A program made the translations under genes and the position numbers. The notes under the pieces are model-generated. The model made no database searches and was not told the origin of the DNA. It saw only the letters and a list, made by a program, of their open reading frames with translations. This document shows positions 1 through 29,000 of a DNA stretch of 64,000 nt, in pieces. The DNA comes from Chiloscyllium plagiosum (lineage: Eukaryota). The stretch covers positions 10,493,181 to 10,557,180 of the forward strand of contig NC_057718.1 of NCBI RefSeq assembly GCF_004010195.1, read 5' to 3'. Position 1 is the stretch's first letter, and each line of letters opens with the position of its first letter.

Positions 1-400
1 AAGATCGTATGAGGAAAGGCTGAGGCACTTGGGGTTGTTTTCATTGGAGAAAAGAAGGTTTAGGGGTGACTTGATAGAGATGTACAAGATGATTAGGGGT
101 TTAGATAGGGTTGAGCGTGAGAACCTTTTTCCACGTATGGAGTCAGCTATTACGAGGGGGCATAGCTTTAAATTAAGGGGTGGTAGGTATAGGACAGATG
201 TTAGGGGTAGGTTCTTTACTCAGCGAGTCGTGAGTTCATTGAATGCCCTGCCAGTAGCAGTGGTGGACTCTCCCTCTTTATGGGCATTTAAGCGGGCATT
301 GGATAGGCATATGGAGGATAGTGGGCTAGTGTAGGCTTGGATCGGCGCAACATCGAGGGCCAAATTCTGCACTGTATTCTTCGATGTTCGATGTTTTTCT
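1..400 (+). mobile_element. CR1-clade LINE 3' fragment
   Basis: ORF 29-334 has typical CR1 ORF2 C-terminal motifs (LFSLEKRR.RGDLIE.YK, TRGH..KL, FFTQRVV). Confidence 0.9.
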
Positions 401-469
401 ATATCTATGAAATTCATGAAAACTCTGTAATTTAGACTTGTATAATTAAATGTTACATTATTGGACTAA

Positions 470-2095
470 TTATCTTAGTCCTTCTGTGGGATTAATTATA
501 TCCCTTACCACTACAGAAATGATAATGAGAATTCCTGTGAAAAAAATTACTTGAAGAAAGTTTGTAACAATATTTTTAAGGGAATCACAGTTCAGTATAA
601 TTAAGATGAAAATAATAATCAATAAACTAATCCTGATCAATGACCTATTCATATTAGTTTCTCTGATATCTGTGGCAGTGTTTAAGAAGGCTGTTCTTAA
701 GAGGGTTATGGGAGTCCTGGCATTATCAATGAAAACGGTACAGACATTGGAAAGAGTGGGAGTGACATGCAGACTGCAAAATTCCTCAGCAAATCTGAAA
801 TGGTCATTGAGAATGGTCCGTGAGGTGTTAAACCAGACAGGAGCTTGACTGAAGAGATTGAGATTTGAAAACCCGGTAGAGCTTGAGGGAGTTTGGTTGC
901 ATTGGTTGGGGTTATTTGTACTAAACCTGTTAGGAAGAAAATACTTCAAAATTGAGAAAATTCCCAATAAAATTATTATTATCCCAAAAAAAGTGAGAGT
1001 AGAATATACGAGTGGAATAGTTTTGTACTTTCCAAAGCTGGTGAGCAGGTAGAAATAATGTGTGGGGTTAAGAAGGCTAAAGATCCAAGTTATGCTTGTA
1101 ATACATAAATGGACGATGTTGCAAATTATCTGTAGCCCCAAGGCTATGGAGAACTTAAGTCCCATAACAACAGTCGATATTGTCCCATAGGTCCCCAAGA
1201 TAATCGTAACTACTAGTGAGATCGAGCCCCCCAAGACCGTCACAGCAATTGTCCAACCTCCTAGAAGCAGGCTAGGGAGAAATAACACACCAGACAGGAG
1301 GACTTTCCAGAACACAGGAATTCTGGTGATGGCTGGCCAATACTTGGATACCAGATTCCAGAGACTAGAAAGGGCATGGAAAAGCCATCTGAATTTGTTG
1401 CTATGAGAAGGATGGTTATCGTTTGCTGTCCTAATGTGCTCAATGATTTTGAGAGGTATGTTTGGGAGCTGGTTTGTTGAAAGAGCAGTCAGAAGAATGG
1501 CTCCAGAAAGCAAACCAACTAAGGAGATGAGGAAGGTGAGCAATGAGCTGAAGACAGGCAGCACAAAGCTTGCCAAATTCAGGAGACTAAAACTCGCCCA
1601 GGAAAGCAATACGAATAGGTGACTGAGTGCATTAATGATGTGAGTGGGGATGCTGGCGATGGACATCAGAAGGAACTCAACTACACTGGTGATGAGGCTC
1701 AGAAGACTATTGGCAATGAACAGGAACCCCTTGATCACCAGGAATGCGATTTGTGAGCAAATGTTACCAATCAATCCGAGGATTGCCAATAGAACCCCAA
1801 CGGCAACAGCCAGAAATAGATTGACGAGAGCCACAACCATACTTATGATTCTCAAAACAACATTCCCCAGACCACACATGACTCCAAACACCCCATAAAT
1901 AACCAAAGCCACACAATGATAGACACCCATTATAATAAAGCTCACAGCATGAAACAAGGTCATTGAGATGTTACTGAGCTCCAGGCTGTATAGTCTTTCA
2001 TACCATTTTGGCTTTAGAAACTCTTCAAGCTCTTCCAGCTTCAGACCATTTCGGGTTGACTTCAATGGATTCATCAAACAGTTTTTCCAATTCAT
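470..2095 (-). CDS. 541-aa multi-pass/hydrophobic ORF; probable ENDOD1-type C-terminal membrane region, in +1 frame relative to the nuclease exon
   Basis: Uninterrupted 1626-nt ORF, extremely hydrophobic; IAVTVLGGSISLVVTIILGTYG resembles the recalled mammalian ENDOD1 tail; overlaps the nuclease frame at 2025-2095. Confidence 0.7.
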   Translation of the reverse strand: MNWKNCLMNPLKSTRNGLKLEELEEFLKPKWYERLYSLELSNISMTLFHAVSFIIMGVYHCVALVIYGVFGVMCGLGNVVLRIISMVVALVNLFLAVAVGVLLAILGLIGNICSQIAFLVIKGFLFIANSLLSLITSVVEFLLMSIASIPTHIINALSHLFVLLSWASFSLLNLASFVLPVFSSLLTFLISLVGLLSGAILLTALSTNQLPNIPLKIIEHIRTANDNHPSHSNKFRWLFHALSSLWNLVSKYWPAITRIPVFWKVLLSGVLFLPSLLLGGWTIAVTVLGGSISLVVTIILGTYGTISTVVMGLKFSIALGLQIICNIVHLCITSITWIFSLLNPTHYFYLLTSFGKYKTIPLVYSTLTFFGIIIILLGIFSILKYFLPNRFSTNNPNQCNQTPSSSTGFSNLNLFSQAPVWFNTSRTILNDHFRFAEEFCSLHVTPTLSNVCTVFIDNARTPITLLRTAFLNTATDIRETNMNRSLIRISLLIIIFILIILNCDSLKNIVTNFLQVIFFTGILIIISVVVRDIINPTEGLR

Positions 2096-2537
2096 TCAGA
2101 GTAATCAGGGTCATTCCTGTCTCTTGTAGAATGTAACCACCAGATTTGAGTGATTTCTTTTTAGGCTTATTTCTGTGATCAGAATCATTTGAGCAGCAGC
2201 TGAAATAGCTGTAAACTCCTCTGGGTATGTTAACCCGCTCGTTAAGGAATTTGTCTGATGGGATGGCTCCAGTGATCACAAACAGTGTTGTAAGTGGTGG
2301 ACACATCATATTTTTTATTATTTTCTCAGCAAAATGAAACCATTTGGTGTTCCACTGCCGTGTCATAGGCACGACATTGGTGAGGGTGCATGAGGCCTTA
2401 CCACTGCCAGGGTTAAATGAGAATGGAAACAAGTGACCCCGTTCATATGACTTATTTCTGTAATCACTGTTGAGGGCTTGGTTGTTCTCAACTCCTTGCT
2501 CCATGCTCATCTCATCTGAACTATCAGGTCGATCCAA
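2025..2537 (-). CDS. ENDOD1: ENDOD1-like nuclease, exon 2
   Basis: Acceptor ttgtccttttcag|TTG at 2537, phase 0; QAL..DY, YERGHLFPFS, TLTNVVPM, VITGAIPS, RVNIP and SCC motifs; TGA at 2027-2025. Confidence 0.85.
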   Translation of the reverse strand: MDRPDSSDEMSMEQGVENNQALNSDYRNKSYERGHLFPFSFNPGSGKASCTLTNVVPMTRQWNTKWFHFAEKIIKNMMCPPLTTLFVITGAIPSDKFLNERVNIPRGVYSYFSCCSNDSDHRNKPKKKSLKSGGYILQETGMTLITLNELEKLFDESIEVNPKWSEAGRA

Positions 2538-2769
2538 CTGAAAAGGACAATGAAAATAGTCAGTTCCAATCCTGACTTTCTTCATTAATTCAATCCTCAT
2601 TTGTTACAAAAAAAAAACTCACAGACACAATCAGAATCTTAATCCCTGTTAATTCCCACTTCATACCCTTCATCAACCCCCATTTATTGGCTGTGCTTCA
2701 ACTAAGTAATCCTAGAGATGTGCAGTAAAACAGTAATCCAGATGAGACCATCCTCATTAATTGGAGCAT

Positions 2770-3230
2770 AGAATTTCAAGAGCATTGACGTTGAATGTAA
2801 AGAAGCCAATTGTTAGACTTTAGCTAGGGTATTGTGTACAATTGTGCTGGGGTACAATTCTGGGCGTCACATTATAGGTAGATGGAAACAGGTTGGAGAG
2901 AGTGCAGAAATGATTTACCAGAATGATTTCAGGGATGAGAAACTTCAGTTTTGGGAACAGACTAATGAAGTTGGAACTTCTCTCCTTGGACAGAAAAAAG
3001 CTAAGAGGAGATCCAGAACCTTGACACTGTAGGTAAGGAGAAACTTGTTTCCGCTTGTAAGCCAGAGGGCATGGATTTAAAATCAAACGTGAAGTGGTTA
3101 TTTGGATAAAATAAAGTGTGCAAGGGGATGGAGAAAAGGCGGGAAATTGGCACCAGCTAATGATACCCGTTTGAGGAGCTAATGCAGGCAAGATGGGCTG
3201 ACTGGCCTCCTTTTGTACCATAACATATCT
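2770..3230 (+). mobile_element. Decayed CR1 3' fragment in the ENDOD1-like intron
   Basis: Degenerate YCVQ.W, LE.VQK.FTRMI and CR1 3' tail-like sequence. Confidence 0.65.
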
Positions 3231-3529
3231 AACAAACCCCACAAAAGCAATTTAAGAATTTAAAACAAGCCCCCTTTTCCCCATCAAAATAAAAATCCCA
3301 AATTGCTTCCCAAGTAGCTGTGAAAATCCCACTCTGGCAATGTTGGGAATTTTACAAGGAGCAGTTTGAATTCCCAAAGAGCCTTGATGGGATTTGGACC
3401 CCAGCCCAAAATTATCTTTGCAAATCCTTACCGACCGTCATACCGAGAGGATCCATTCCTCATCCTCAAGGTGTACCATTAGCGACCGGATTTATGGAAG
3501 AAACATTCAGTGGTGACAGTACACCTTAC

Positions 3530-3832
3530 CTGCGGTTCAATGAAAAAAAAATTCGGCCTTCTGTCCTTCTCACAGCTTATTGTTTTAGCCCTATAAGCCG
3601 AATATAGCGGAATGCGCAGGTCTGTGCTGTACGCTGTGGCGAAGTGGAACTGGGAACGATAATACTGGCAGATTCTTTTGGGCTTAATGATCTTAAATAG
3701 GAAGGGTTCCTCGCCGTTACAGAAAAACTGGCTGCATTCGTGAAAAGAGTTTACAACTTTCCCCTCCGTTGCCCACGGGATGATGAGAGTCGAGAGCAGA
3801 ACCAAACTGCACCATCTCATAATCCAATACAT
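3530..3832 (-). CDS. ENDOD1: ENDOD1-like nuclease, exon 1 with signal peptide
   Basis: ATG 3832, hydrophobic leader ending ATEG-KV; F.EC..FF, ICQ.Y, FAT.Y....RIP.YSAY, IEPQ; donor CAG|gtaagg; 303 nt, phase 0; spliced product 271 aa. Confidence 0.88.
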
Positions 3833-3884
3833 GTTCGGCCACTTACTGCCTCTGCGATAATGAAAAGCTCAGTTTGCAGACCAC

Positions 3885-3897
3885 AGTTTTCAGTTTC
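3885..3897 (-). promoter_or_regulatory. Candidate ISRE/IRF element
   Basis: GAAACTGAAAACT matches GAAANNGAAA, about 53 nt upstream of the ENDOD1-like ATG. Confidence 0.45.
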
Positions 3898-6049
3898 GAA
3901 CTTCCTTGCATTTCTGAACAACCCAATCAGAGGAGTTCGACGTCAGGTATTATCCAACCCCGAATGTTTCTTAAGATTGTGAGCTGCCTTCTTGCAGTTT
4001 TAAGGAATTCAGTAATCCCCGCAAGTGCTATCCAGAAAGGAGATTTCCTATCAGTGAGGTTGAAGGATCTGGGAAATTGATCCATTTTATCTTAATGGTC
4101 TACCCGAGGAGTAATCGCTGGATCTGAAACAAGGCGACTTGCAGGAGATCCAGAGTCTCTTGGTGTTGCTGCCTCTAAGGATCCACTGGGACCTGTGAGG
4201 GATCTCACAATGTATCCACGCTGTCACTGGATCACACTGCTTCGTCTTGTTTTTTTTTCCCTGACTAGGAGAGTACTGCTTCTTGGACAATAAGCTTTGT
4301 CAACACACTTCCCCCTTGTGTAGGATGATGTAGCCTATACACACATCATGCTGAGAGAGCCATAATATGATGCAATTTCTTTCATACACAGAAAAAGATT
4401 CCATTCCATCAAAGTACTAATCATTGGTGACATTTAGCATTCCATCTTAGAAATGTGCACTACTTACCTTGGGAAGATAGTATTCTGAAGTTGTGACGTA
4501 AACTGGGATTTATCATTTTATTTGCTGAGAATTTGGGATTCTGGTTTTGAGTTAGTAACTGGTAGGACAAACCCATCAGAGGGAGTTGCGTTGGGAGTTC
4601 TTAACATCAGCTCTGGACCCCATGAAGTCTCATGGCTTCAGGTTAAACATGGGCAAGGAAACCTCCTAATGATTGCCACACACTGTCCTCTATTGGTTGA
4701 TGAATCAGTACCCCATCACATTGAAAATACTTGGAGGTAACTCTGAGGGCGACAAAGGTGTTAAATGTACTCTGGGTGGGAGATTTCAGTATCCACCACC
4801 AAGGGTAGCTCAGCAACAGATCGACTGATGGAGCTGGTCAGGTCCCAAAGGATATAACAGCTAGACTTGATTTGTAGCACGGGTTGAGGGAATGAGCAAG
4901 AGGGAAAGACATACTCAGCCTCACCTTTACCAATCTGATAGCTGCAGGTGCACCTGTCCATGTCAGTATTGGTAAGAGCGATCACCGCACGGTCCTTATG
5001 GAGACCAAGTCCCGGTTTACATTGAGAATCTCATCATGTTGTGTTGCACTATCACTGTGCCAACTGACGCAGACTTCAAACAGATCTAGCAACTCAAGAC
5101 TGGGCATTCATGAGGAGCTGGAGACCATCAAATGCAACAGAATTGTGTTCAGGCACAATCTGCAACCTCATTGCATGACATACCCCCATCCAACCATTAC
5201 CATCAAGCTAAGGGATCAACCCCAGTTCAGTGCAGAAAGGCATGCCAGGACCAGCTCTGTGCATATCTAAAAATGAGGTGTCAACCTGATTAAGCTACCA
5301 AACAGGAGCTCTTATATGCCAAACAGCATAAGCAGCAAGTGGTAGAGCTATTTTTTTATATATTCATTTGAGGGGTGTGGGCATTGCTGGATTGTTAGCA
5401 TTTATTGCCTATGCCTAGTTGCTCTGAAGGTGGAATAGTGCGCTTAGGGAGGAAATTCCAGGATTTTGACCTGGCAACAGTGAAGGAGTGACAATATGTT
5501 TCCAACACACAATGGTGAATGGCTTAGAGAGGAACTTAAAGATGGTGGCATTTCCATATATCCGTTGTCCTTAGAGATGGAAGTCATCATGGGCTTGAAA
5601 GTTGCATCTTGTGGAAACCACACACTTACTGCTGCTGAGTGTTGGTGGTGGTGAGTGAATGCTTGTGGATGTTGTGCGAATCAAGCGGGGTGCTTTTCCT
5701 GAAATAACATCAAGCTTCTTGAGTGTTATCAGGGCCACAGTCATCCAGGCACGTGAGGAGTCTTCCATCACTCTCTTGACGTGTGCCTTGTAGATGGTGG
5801 ATAAGCTACAGGGAGTCAAGTAGTGAATTACTGGCCACAGTATTCCTAGCCTCTTGCAGTCACTGTGTTTACGTGGTGAGTCTAGCTGAGCGTCTGGTCA
5901 ATGATAACCCCAGGATGTTGATAGTGGTGAATTCAGTGCTGGTAAAACCATTGACTGGCAATGGGCATTGGTTAGATTGTCTCTTTTTGCAATGGTCAGA
6001 TCATAGTACTTACATAGTGCAAATGGTACTTGCCAAGCCTAGATGTTGG

Positions 6050-26000: not shown

Positions 26001-29000
26001 ATAACTTTTATGGTGTGCAAACAAGGAACCATGTAACCTTCCGCACATGTGCAGTTTATATGTGCAGAATCGCCCCTCGGATTGTGTAGCAAAAAACAAA
26101 CATCAGTAGAACTATAATCGGGCAAAGGTTAGTGTTTTCAATTATATTTGGGCTGGGGAAGAAAACAAAAGAGGATGCTCAAGTCACAACACTGATTACA
26201 ATATTTTAATAGTGCACCATATGATTTACAACATCCTGAGTTAATATTTTCATCAGGTTGTCTGACCTCAGCATAGAAAACAGAGTAGTTACTACCCTGT
26301 AATAAGTTGTTCAGTGACTTTTTTCTAAACTTAACAAAAATGAATTGCAATCAGAAAGAACTGTTTAAAATAAAACAGAGATTTACCATGATGGCTGGAT
26401 AATTTCACAGTAAAGAATTTGATAGCTATAAAGAACTCTTTGTGTAACTATGGGCTCCTGCAATATGCAGATGATCAGGAGCCCAGGGGCTGTTGACAAG
26501 TGATGCTGATTAGTTCTGAGCTAACTGAGCAGGTTGAAACTGGAAATAAGTTACAGAAACAGAGACATAGAGGGAGAGACAAAAAGTCAGAAGTGTGTGC
26601 AGTTGTTCTCCCCTGCATAAGGTGCCAGTTCTCTGCCGTTAAAAAAACTCCACTTAACCTCACAGAAAACTGGTTACTTTTTCTGTAGCAGTTATTCGGA
26701 GCTGTGACTTTTCATTTGATAAATCAGACATTTGTACAAATGAACCATGCACTGTGTGTCTCTTACAAACGATTCAAAGCATTCAGAAAAGTCAACTAAA
26801 CACCTACAACTTGACTAGCTAAAGTACCATTTCAACACAGGAATCAGGAATGAAAGACAACTGAACTGATTTTCCAGCTTTTCTACCTCGACCAATAATC
26901 AATTTTCTGTATTTATTTTCCTGAGTGCGTGCTTGTATAAGAAGGAGGTTGTAAGGGGATAAGACTTTTAGTTTTTAAAGAGTTACACACCAATGGTTTG
27001 TCTGTTTATCTGCAGCTATAGTCTAGTTACTTGTAATCAATAATTTGTGGCAAGTACAGAAATCTGACCAGTATTTTTTATCAGCTCAATCTGAAAGTCA
27101 GGTAAAATGAGGTACTGCATTTATCACAATTGTTATCGCCTCCTTTGGCACGTTTTGGCTGATCACACATGCACTGGTTCTATTACCTAGTGTCAATCAC
27201 CTGCCTTTTGCCACATCCCTACTCACCATTTCTAATCAAATAATCATTCACTGCCCTCTTGAATCCCTTAACTGAAAGCATCCACCACATTTCCAGGCAG
27301 TACGAATGATAACCTACCTACAAGCAGTGTGAAAAAGGTTTTATCTTACATCACTATTACATTGTTTTCACATCACTTTAAATCTATACCTTTTTTTCCC
27401 TTTAACAAGCAGGAACAGCTTCGCCCTATTTACTCTGAACAGCCTACTCATGATTTTGAAAACCTCAATCAGATTTTCTCTCAGCCTTCTTCTCACCAAG
27501 TAGAACAGTTCCAACTTCTGCAATCCATCTTCATAACTTCTCATTCCTGACGCCATTCTTGTATATTGCTCAGCAGTCTCTGCAATGCACTGATATCTTT
27601 CTTACAGTTTGTGGCATCCACAACTGTGTAAAATGCTCTCAAGTCCAAAAAATTACCTTATACAAGTTCATCACCACCTCCCTGCACTTGCCCCTATTCA
27701 TAAAGCTGTATGTTTTATTAGCTGCTCTCTTCACCTGTCCTGCCAACTTCAGTGACCTTGTGAACATATACACCCAGTTTCTACCACTCCGGCACCCTAT
27801 TTAGAACTGTACCCCTATTTTATATTATGACCAAAGTGCATCACCTCAAACATCTGTGTATTGAACCTCAATTGACACCTATTCATCCATAACACCAACT
27901 TAGTAATGTTCAGGAAAACTACTGTTTTGAAAGATCATCAATTATGAGCACTCCAGCAACTTGGAAAAGCAGCTGTAGCATATCAGCATAACCTTAAACC
28001 CAAAAACACGAGGACAACATTGAGCAAACCTGCTAGTATCTCAGGGATTAAATACTCATGAGCAGACTGGCAGTCAAGACAGCTTCAACCCCTAACTCAA
28101 GCTCACACCTTCCTCACTTGCACTTATTTCTGAGGTCCAAAGAATGACAGCTTCTTCAAAATAAACTGTAAAAGGTAATGAAATAGCTACCTCTTCACTG
28201 TCTTCCTCTTCTGCTTCTTCAGATTCATCCTCGCTGTCCTCAAAGAAGACAGATTTAGCTGCTCGCTGTGATTTGGCAGATGATGAGCAGGACGGCCCAG
28301 CATCAACTGTGGATGATGACACAACAGCCTCTTCAGAGGTGCCTTTGCTGGCTTTGGCAGGTTCTTTGTCTGACCCAGATCCAGTAATGCTATCTCCACT
28401 TGCCAGTCCAGCTTCCTCACTTCCATAATCAGAACTTGAGGAGATTCCGACAGTCTCCCCCAATTTTCCATTTTTGCTCTTTTTCTCACCCATGCCTGCT
28501 TCACTGCTCTCCAACTCTCCATTAATCTCTTTTTCAGTTTTATTTGTCTCATCATCTTTAGGCAGAGGTTTCTTAACAGTGGGGGTAGTTTTGCTCTTTG
28601 AATGTTTGGCACTGTTCTGGTGTTGTCCATATCGAGTGAGTAACTCTTCAATTGTCATTGTAGCCTCTTCGTGTAAAAGTGCAGCCTCCTCATGGTCAAC
28701 TGGAAAAAAATAAACAAAAAAAATTTTGTTGATCTATTATGGGGTGGATGTATCTTACCAACTAAATAGCTTTAGGGAGTTATCACTAACATACTGGAAA
28801 GGGAAAGAATGCTTTTACCAGACCTGTACACTCATAACCTGATCCACATATGAAATATCTCCTAACTAAAGGATCAAACCTAAAAGTTTTTACAACAATT
28901 CATACACAAAGTTATTTAATAAAATTCTCATGCCTGATGGAATCCATGAATAAAATTTTCCCTGTTCTTTTCCATTTCGAGTTCATACCTATTTCAAAAC

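Follow-up and report, generated by a model that had tools for sequence, protein, structure and literature searches.

The window analysed here, a 64,000-nucleotide (nt) stretch of the genome of the shark Chiloscyllium plagiosum (contig NC_057718.1, positions 10,493,181 to 10,557,180), carries on its minus strand, at 470..3832, a gene resembling ENDOD1 in which a nuclease frame and a long hydrophobic frame are separated by a frame change. We estimate a probability of about 0.88 that an ordinary 29-nt genomic deletion truncated this gene, leaving a likely secreted nuclease and an undecayed leftover of the tail, and that the frame change is not a frameshift switch. The ancestral gene would have encoded one protein of ~800–900 amino acids (aa), composed of a signal peptide, a non-specific endonuclease domain of the His-Me-finger type and a very long hydrophobic tail. 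The 29-nt deletion, just past the end of the nuclease domain, shifts the frame, and translation stops three codons on. Contigs show that the gene is still transcribed and spliced. Its messenger RNA (mRNA) would probably escape exon-junction-dependent decay, since the stop sits in the last known exon (the contig of a related shark, from run X18, is continuous down to 401), and would carry a 3′ untranslated region (UTR) of at least 1.35 kilobases (kb), given that the contigs of run X10 reach 671. At 271 aa, the product would have no membrane anchor; it is probably secreted and has probably remained a nuclease. The downstream 541-codon open reading frame (ORF) would be the old tail lying in the 3′ UTR, still open because the time elapsed has been too short for a stop to appear.

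To read the break at the DNA level, four sequencing runs were aligned over window positions 300–4000, in the form of contigs, from which rare variants drop out. Runs X7 and X10 are two other samples of C. plagiosum, from two studies; X13 comes from organism B and X18 from organism C, a related shark. A single 2194-letter contig of X7 spans 336–2529 with four letter differences from the window and no gaps, and a contig of X10 covers 1926–2175 with no difference at all. X10 was read as RNA, although the automatic guess was DNA, because it has the exact splice joint, with at least 255 letters on either side, and leaves most of the intron uncovered. The single spliced contig of X18, covering 401–2537 and 3530–3856, has 30 gap letters relative to the window: 29 are inserted behind 2035 and one is left out at 488. 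The alignment of the X13 contig ends exactly at 2036 with 36 letters left over, a clip that fits the same 29-nt insertion, the leftover letters themselves being unread. The two features at the centre of the argument are as follows.

2035..2036, minus strand: deletion breakpoint, with 29 extra letters in X18 and none in X7 or X10
2025..2027, minus strand: premature TGA, at which the shifted frame first stops, spanning what were Leu-Glu codons in the ancestor

Exon 2 down to 2036 measures 502 nt; adding the 29 gives a number divisible by three and brings the reading into the tail frame. A reading by hand that includes the flanks of the window gives WSEAAVSKSESILLEELEEFL for the restored junction, and at the same place the RefSeq model of Hemiscyllium ocellatum has WSEPAVSQSESILLEELEEFLKPKW. 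Colinearity through the junction also holds for the models from catshark, basking shark, white shark and horn shark. The comparison with other sharks' orthologues, which the first-pass annotation had named as a check, gave a continuous ORF through the junction in the models of five out of six other species (H. ocellatum, Heterodontus, Cetorhinus, Carcharodon and Scyliorhinus torazame); the sixth, that of C. punctatum, ends earlier. Judged by the aligned sequences, 29 nt have been lost from the window in the lineage of this species, at a point 8 nt upstream of the TGA. The recent frameshifting deletion that the first-pass annotation had listed among its explanations is thus located, by the X18 contig, at 2035/2036. 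The junction of organism C is free of frameshifts; 198 further substitution entries and five indel entries lie beyond those itemised, so that point stops elsewhere are possible and the length of 797 aa for the protein of organism C is an upper bound, a point of relevance in view of the C. punctatum model with its 251 aa. A simple filter for frame-restoring GT..AG introns of at least 60 nt across the break, with a pyrimidine tract, gave no candidates, and none of the ten splice joints listed from the aligned runs restores the frame.

The gene as it now stands comprises two coding exons, followed by the former tail.

3530..3832, minus strand: coding exon 1 (303 nt, 101 codons, phase 0), with the start codon, a signal-peptide-like N-terminus and the first part of the nuclease domain
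2538..3529, minus strand: intron of 992 nt, GT..AG, phase 0
2025..2537, minus strand: coding part of exon 2, with the remainder of the endonuclease domain, then three shifted-frame codons and the TGA
2036..2095, minus strand: first 20 codons of the 541-codon ORF, which are off-frame nuclease codons with no orthologue counterpart
470..2035, minus strand: relic of the hydrophobic tail, ~520 codons with ten hydrophobic 19-residue windows

The translation of exon 1 is identical to the start of RefSeq XP_043552735.1, and the spliced contigs of X10 and X18 cover this exon; a signal peptide is predicted in it from the hydrophobic N-terminus and by analogy with human ENDOD1. The splice joint 2537/3530 is present in three of the four runs aligned to the locus, and the intron contains a high-copy repeat at about 2890–3130. 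The two-frame layout described in the first-pass annotation was confirmed from the coordinates. The spliced frame encodes 271 aa and ends ...AGA GCT TGA, with the stop at 2027–2025 on the minus strand; its product is letter for letter the C. plagiosum RefSeq protein XP_043552735.1 (P0008), "endonuclease domain-containing 1 protein-like". In the +1 frame, 541 codons without a stop run from ATG 2095 to a stop ending at 470, and an in-frame TGA (2098) directly precedes the ATG. Skipping the T of the nuclease stop would, by arithmetic from these coordinates, join 271 and 518 codons into a 789-aa fusion.

Conserved TLNEL codons, read out of frame, give both the ATG at 2095 and the TGA preceding it; these stand in the tail frame because of the deletion only. 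Homology of the 541-codon ORF to the orthologues begins only past the break (2035/2036). The frame itself is not a product of chance, since it is homologous to the tail of the white shark protein (43% identity over 441 columns, E 7e-81). Most likely, the relic at 470..2035 is now 3′ UTR; the spliced-type coverage of X10 extends over it from 1861 down to 671.

The next question was how the tail could have remained open. Between the window and X18, 93 of 2137 aligned positions differ (4.4%), and between the window and X13, 36 of 920 (3.9%); over 817–1420, organisms B and C share 12 changes relative to the window, or about 2%. In 5000 runs of a neutral simulation, the tail stayed stop-free in 93, 82, 68 and 44% at divergences of 0.2, 0.5, 1 and 2%, respectively. 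Over 817–1420, the tail has accumulated eight nonsynonymous and four synonymous changes in this lineage, and seven and two in organism B (pooled omega 0.9–1.0); so many nonsynonymous changes would have a probability of 0.013 if omega were 0.3. Shared changes at 524 and 545 (one nonsynonymous, one synonymous), as well as one at 482, lie outside this stretch and are uncounted. Among the C. plagiosum samples there are four differences (two nonsynonymous, two synonymous), none of which creates a stop. The tail also carries a lesion of its own:

488..488, minus strand: second frameshift, one base more than in organisms B and C (absent from X13 and X18, kept in X7)

This base alters the last few tail codons. 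Since neutral simulations often keep the tail stop-free, its changes are near-neutral and a second frameshift is present, the open tail needs no selection. The earlier statement that both halves of the gene are otherwise intact fails for the tail at 488, and it gives no argument for selection there. In organism B (X13), the tail has an in-frame 24-nt deletion corresponding to window 721–744.

Several points weigh against the deletion account as we have put it. When indels were added to the simulation, at an assumed rate of 0.1 per substitution that is not a measured value, the tail remained open in 73, 44, 19 and 4% of runs at the same divergences. Given these figures, either the deletion would postdate the split of the species or constraint would have acted on the tail for some of the time; on the simulations, a deletion younger than the split is more likely than one at its base. 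The counts of nonsynonymous and synonymous changes are small, being drawn from 40 of 238 substitution entries (the entries for 817–1420 appear complete for X13), and the ratio in organism B suggests that the tail is loosely constrained in general, rather than freed by the deletion. The listed pieces of X10 leave 1862–1925 unbridged. Finally, the contigs show that the allele is real; its fixation in the species and the absence of a rare rescued splice form are beyond contig evidence.

The 271-aa product matches the Pfam family PF01223 (DNA/RNA non-specific endonuclease) over residues 53–243 (E 6.8e-11, 42.7 bits versus a cut-off of 23). R134-G135-H136, N155, N164 and E172 are invariant in all six shark sequences aligned, and we assume for the RGH motif and the downstream Asn and Glu the roles of their counterparts in Serratia nuclease and EndoG. 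A PDB sequence search returned EXOG at E 0.23–0.26, a weak match in which RGH is aligned, together with two unrelated chains. The structure model is weak (mean predicted local distance difference test (pLDDT) score of 54.9); its best matches were the nuclease-like domain of ENPP1, EndoG and EXOG, at E of about 1e-4 and query template modelling (TM) scores of 0.31–0.40. According to the model, the last predicted helix (248–256) and the catalytic residues precede the break. The product contains no hydrophobic transmembrane-like window, and C-terminal transmembrane segments of the mammalian type are lacking, though present in the long shark orthologues. Because the hydrophobic N-terminus is kept and no transmembrane-like window is present, this sequence is probably that of a secreted nuclease. 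The first-pass annotation had taken the missing terminal Cys of the domain for a trace of the lesion; a Cys is present at the end of the nuclease domain in four paralogues on the same contig, and the orthologues that read through the junction also have none (SIEVNPxW), which removes that argument.

Human ENDOD1, as described in the available part of PMC9126970, has 500 aa, with a signal peptide at 1–22, an endonuclease domain at 49–257 and, at the C-terminus, three transmembrane motifs. The ancestral shark protein is likened to it by the order of its parts, namely signal peptide, nuclease domain and hydrophobic tail. The long shark tail differs from the three human motifs, as given there, in its ~600 aa, its 13–14 hydrophobic windows and its lack of a non-shark match. 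RGH is retained in the shark protein, while the available text of PMC9126970 describes the human domain as atypical. In turbot, endod1 is induced by bacteria, according to the available part of PMC11659141. Within the open-access literature searched, nothing describing the present gene was found.

Orthologue models are long in three out of seven species (854–912 aa) and short in four (251, 271, 416 and 425 aa), each short model ending at a different place. The lesion was read at the DNA level for the window only; the other lengths are those of automatic gene models. The long forms are XP_041036423.1 (Carcharodon, 854 aa), XP_078413746.1 (Cetorhinus, 900 aa) and GCB82386.1 (S. torazame, 912 aa); the short ones, besides the window gene, are as follows.

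P0011, P0012 and P0007: short orthologue models of H. ocellatum (425 aa), C. punctatum (251 aa) and Heterodontus (416 aa)

Identity between the window and shark orthologues is 57–92% in the nuclease domain; in the tail it is 45–48% to catshark and basking shark, and 92% over 137 aa to H. ocellatum (XP_060686687.1, 425 aa). Unlike the window, the shark orthologues have one continuous frame through the junction. The long orthologues carry ~103 more tail residues, which the window copy lacks in frame. The long-form tail (P0001, P0002 and P0004) comprises ~600 aa with 13–14 hydrophobic windows and belongs to no Pfam family. A Pfam scan of the 541-aa ORF gave only DUF3948 (E 0.036), below the cut-off of that family. 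Homologues of the tail were limited to one protein among 8000 scored candidates and two among 1.84 billion representatives, all from sharks. A search of the genome itself, under a stricter-than-usual first pass, found the tail at this locus only.

Further ENDOD1-like genes lie nearby.

Same contig, four within about 280 kb: ENDOD1-like paralogues L003, L004, L005 and L006
L003:1444-2577 and L004:1006-1914, 38 and 60 kb from the gene: paralogues with hydrophobic tails of ~100 and ~60 residues
L005:1159-1878 and L006:1498-2145, near-duplicates 175 kb apart: paralogues of which L005 keeps a short hydrophobic C-terminus

With its shorter tail, L003 is nearer to human ENDOD1 in size. In L006, 5 nt are deleted relative to L005; the resulting frameshift costs it the short hydrophobic C-terminus.

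The same deletion might have left the whole gene decaying, its 271-aa product being carried along by a pseudogene at an early stage within a birth-and-death cluster. Since this possibility is contained in the truncation account, its probability is not to be added to the figure given above, and we hold it tentatively, as a serious minority possibility; a working soluble nuclease is ranked somewhat above it. Decay would agree with the C. punctatum model, which stops at 251 aa inside the last predicted helix, with the Heterodontus model, in which ~35 residues of the nuclease domain are missing, and with an identity of only 90.4% between the two Chiloscyllium nuclease domains; moreover, the four paralogues within about 280 kb could cover the function. 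However, the catalytic residues, the N-terminus and the splice sites are intact, the gene is spliced in X10, and tail-less forms of similar length exist in L006 and in the 272-aa conger protein P0010.

Another sub-case, which we consider unlikely, is that tail shedding was adaptive, with several shark lineages or paralogues independently turning an anchored nuclease into a shorter or soluble one. The four short orthologue models and the loss of the L006 end through a 5-nt deletion point in this direction. The other lengths, however, come from automatic gene models with no DNA reading, the 416- and 425-aa forms retain four hydrophobic windows each, and a dispensable tail would give the same pattern with no adaptation.

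Translation of the tail on its own could start at ATG 2095 or a later ATG, through leaky scanning, reinitiation or an internal transcript; in-frame ATGs occur at 2095, 2074, 1963, 1930 and 1879. We regard this as very improbable. Sixteen AUGs precede 2095 in the spliced mRNA, the context of ATG 2095 is weak, with a pyrimidine at −3, and the stop follows this ATG after 68 nt; in any sequence that has the 29 nt, this ATG does not share the tail's frame. Ribosomes reinitiate inefficiently after an ORF of 271 codons. An exact look-up of four candidate tail proteins found none on record.

Slightly less probable still is programmed +1 frameshifting at GCU-UGA, as in antizyme, which would yield a 789-aa anchored form beside the secreted one. 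The geometry permits it: the tail frame is open across the stop, and as in ornithine decarboxylase antizyme (PMC1874602, in the part available) ORF1 ends in UGA and is overlapped by a longer +1 ORF; the spliced-type run of C. plagiosum also covers most of the tail. In that survey of ~300 mRNAs, as far as its available text goes, the sites are conserved, most animals have UCC-UGA, and vertebrates have a 3′ pseudoknot. The antizyme sites it describes are conserved across species, with UCC-UGA and the pseudoknot in vertebrates, whereas the shark site is lineage-specific and made by the deletion, and no stimulator was found. The codons before the stop named there are UCC, CCC, GCG, CCG, UUU, AUU and GUU; GCU does not occur in the main text of PMC1874602. 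There was no such site before the deletion, and relatives do not share it, X18 having the 29 nt. Four stretches around the stop folded no better than shuffles, with z-scores 3′ of the stop of 0.14, −0.28 and −0.68 by a method that does not predict pseudoknots. A search of Rfam over 1700–2400 found no frameshift-element family, the five matches up to E 10 being weak (E 0.94–8.9) and far below gathering scores. The switch envisaged in the first-pass annotation (recoding, reinitiation or a bicistronic mRNA) thus finds no support, given that relatives read through, no stimulator was found and the break lies 8 nt upstream of the stop. Slippage at or near GCU-UGA arising after the deletion and restoring the anchored form, that is, a new recoding switch gained within ~2% sequence divergence, we judge just as improbable. 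If true, a newly evolved frameshift switch between secreted and anchored forms would matter much more than a plain truncation, and it is very unlikely. Least probable of all is an assembly error, the indel first suspected at this site: it has its prior alone in its favour, the break is crossed with no gap in two other samples from two studies (X7 and X10), and a clean 29-nt loss is unlike a homopolymer slip.

That a frameshifting deletion should truncate a duplicated gene is nothing unusual, and RefSeq already contains the 271-aa product. What the annotation of XP_043552735.1 conceals is that the protein represents the first third of a nuclease whose hydrophobic tail of ~600 residues belongs to no known family and was found in this analysis only in sharks. 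As this tail appears to end at different points in the models of four species and is shorter among the paralogues, the cluster offers a small natural experiment on whether anchored nucleases of the ENDOD1-like kind have repeatedly become soluble.

Some minor observations concern the surroundings. A high-copy repeat occupies window 2–400, starting 70 nt past the tail stop, with a reverse-transcriptase-like frame at 2–334 and no Pfam match; we presume a resemblance to CR1/L2. It may be an insertion absent from organism C, the X18 contig having 289 different letters beyond 401. In X7 the intron is covered, yet the spliced joint is also seen, with just 23 letters on its short side; this may reflect an admixture of RNA, a processed copy or coincidence. 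The assembly yielded no second copy of exon 2. On the minus strand at window 28095–28733 lies an acidic open frame with no Pfam or PDB match, which may resemble an exon of the protein phosphatase PPM1G. Elsewhere in the assembly, matches to PF01223 spread over several exons (L007, L012 and L015 on contig C30, L013 and L014 on contig C5) are probably genes of the EndoG/EXOG type.

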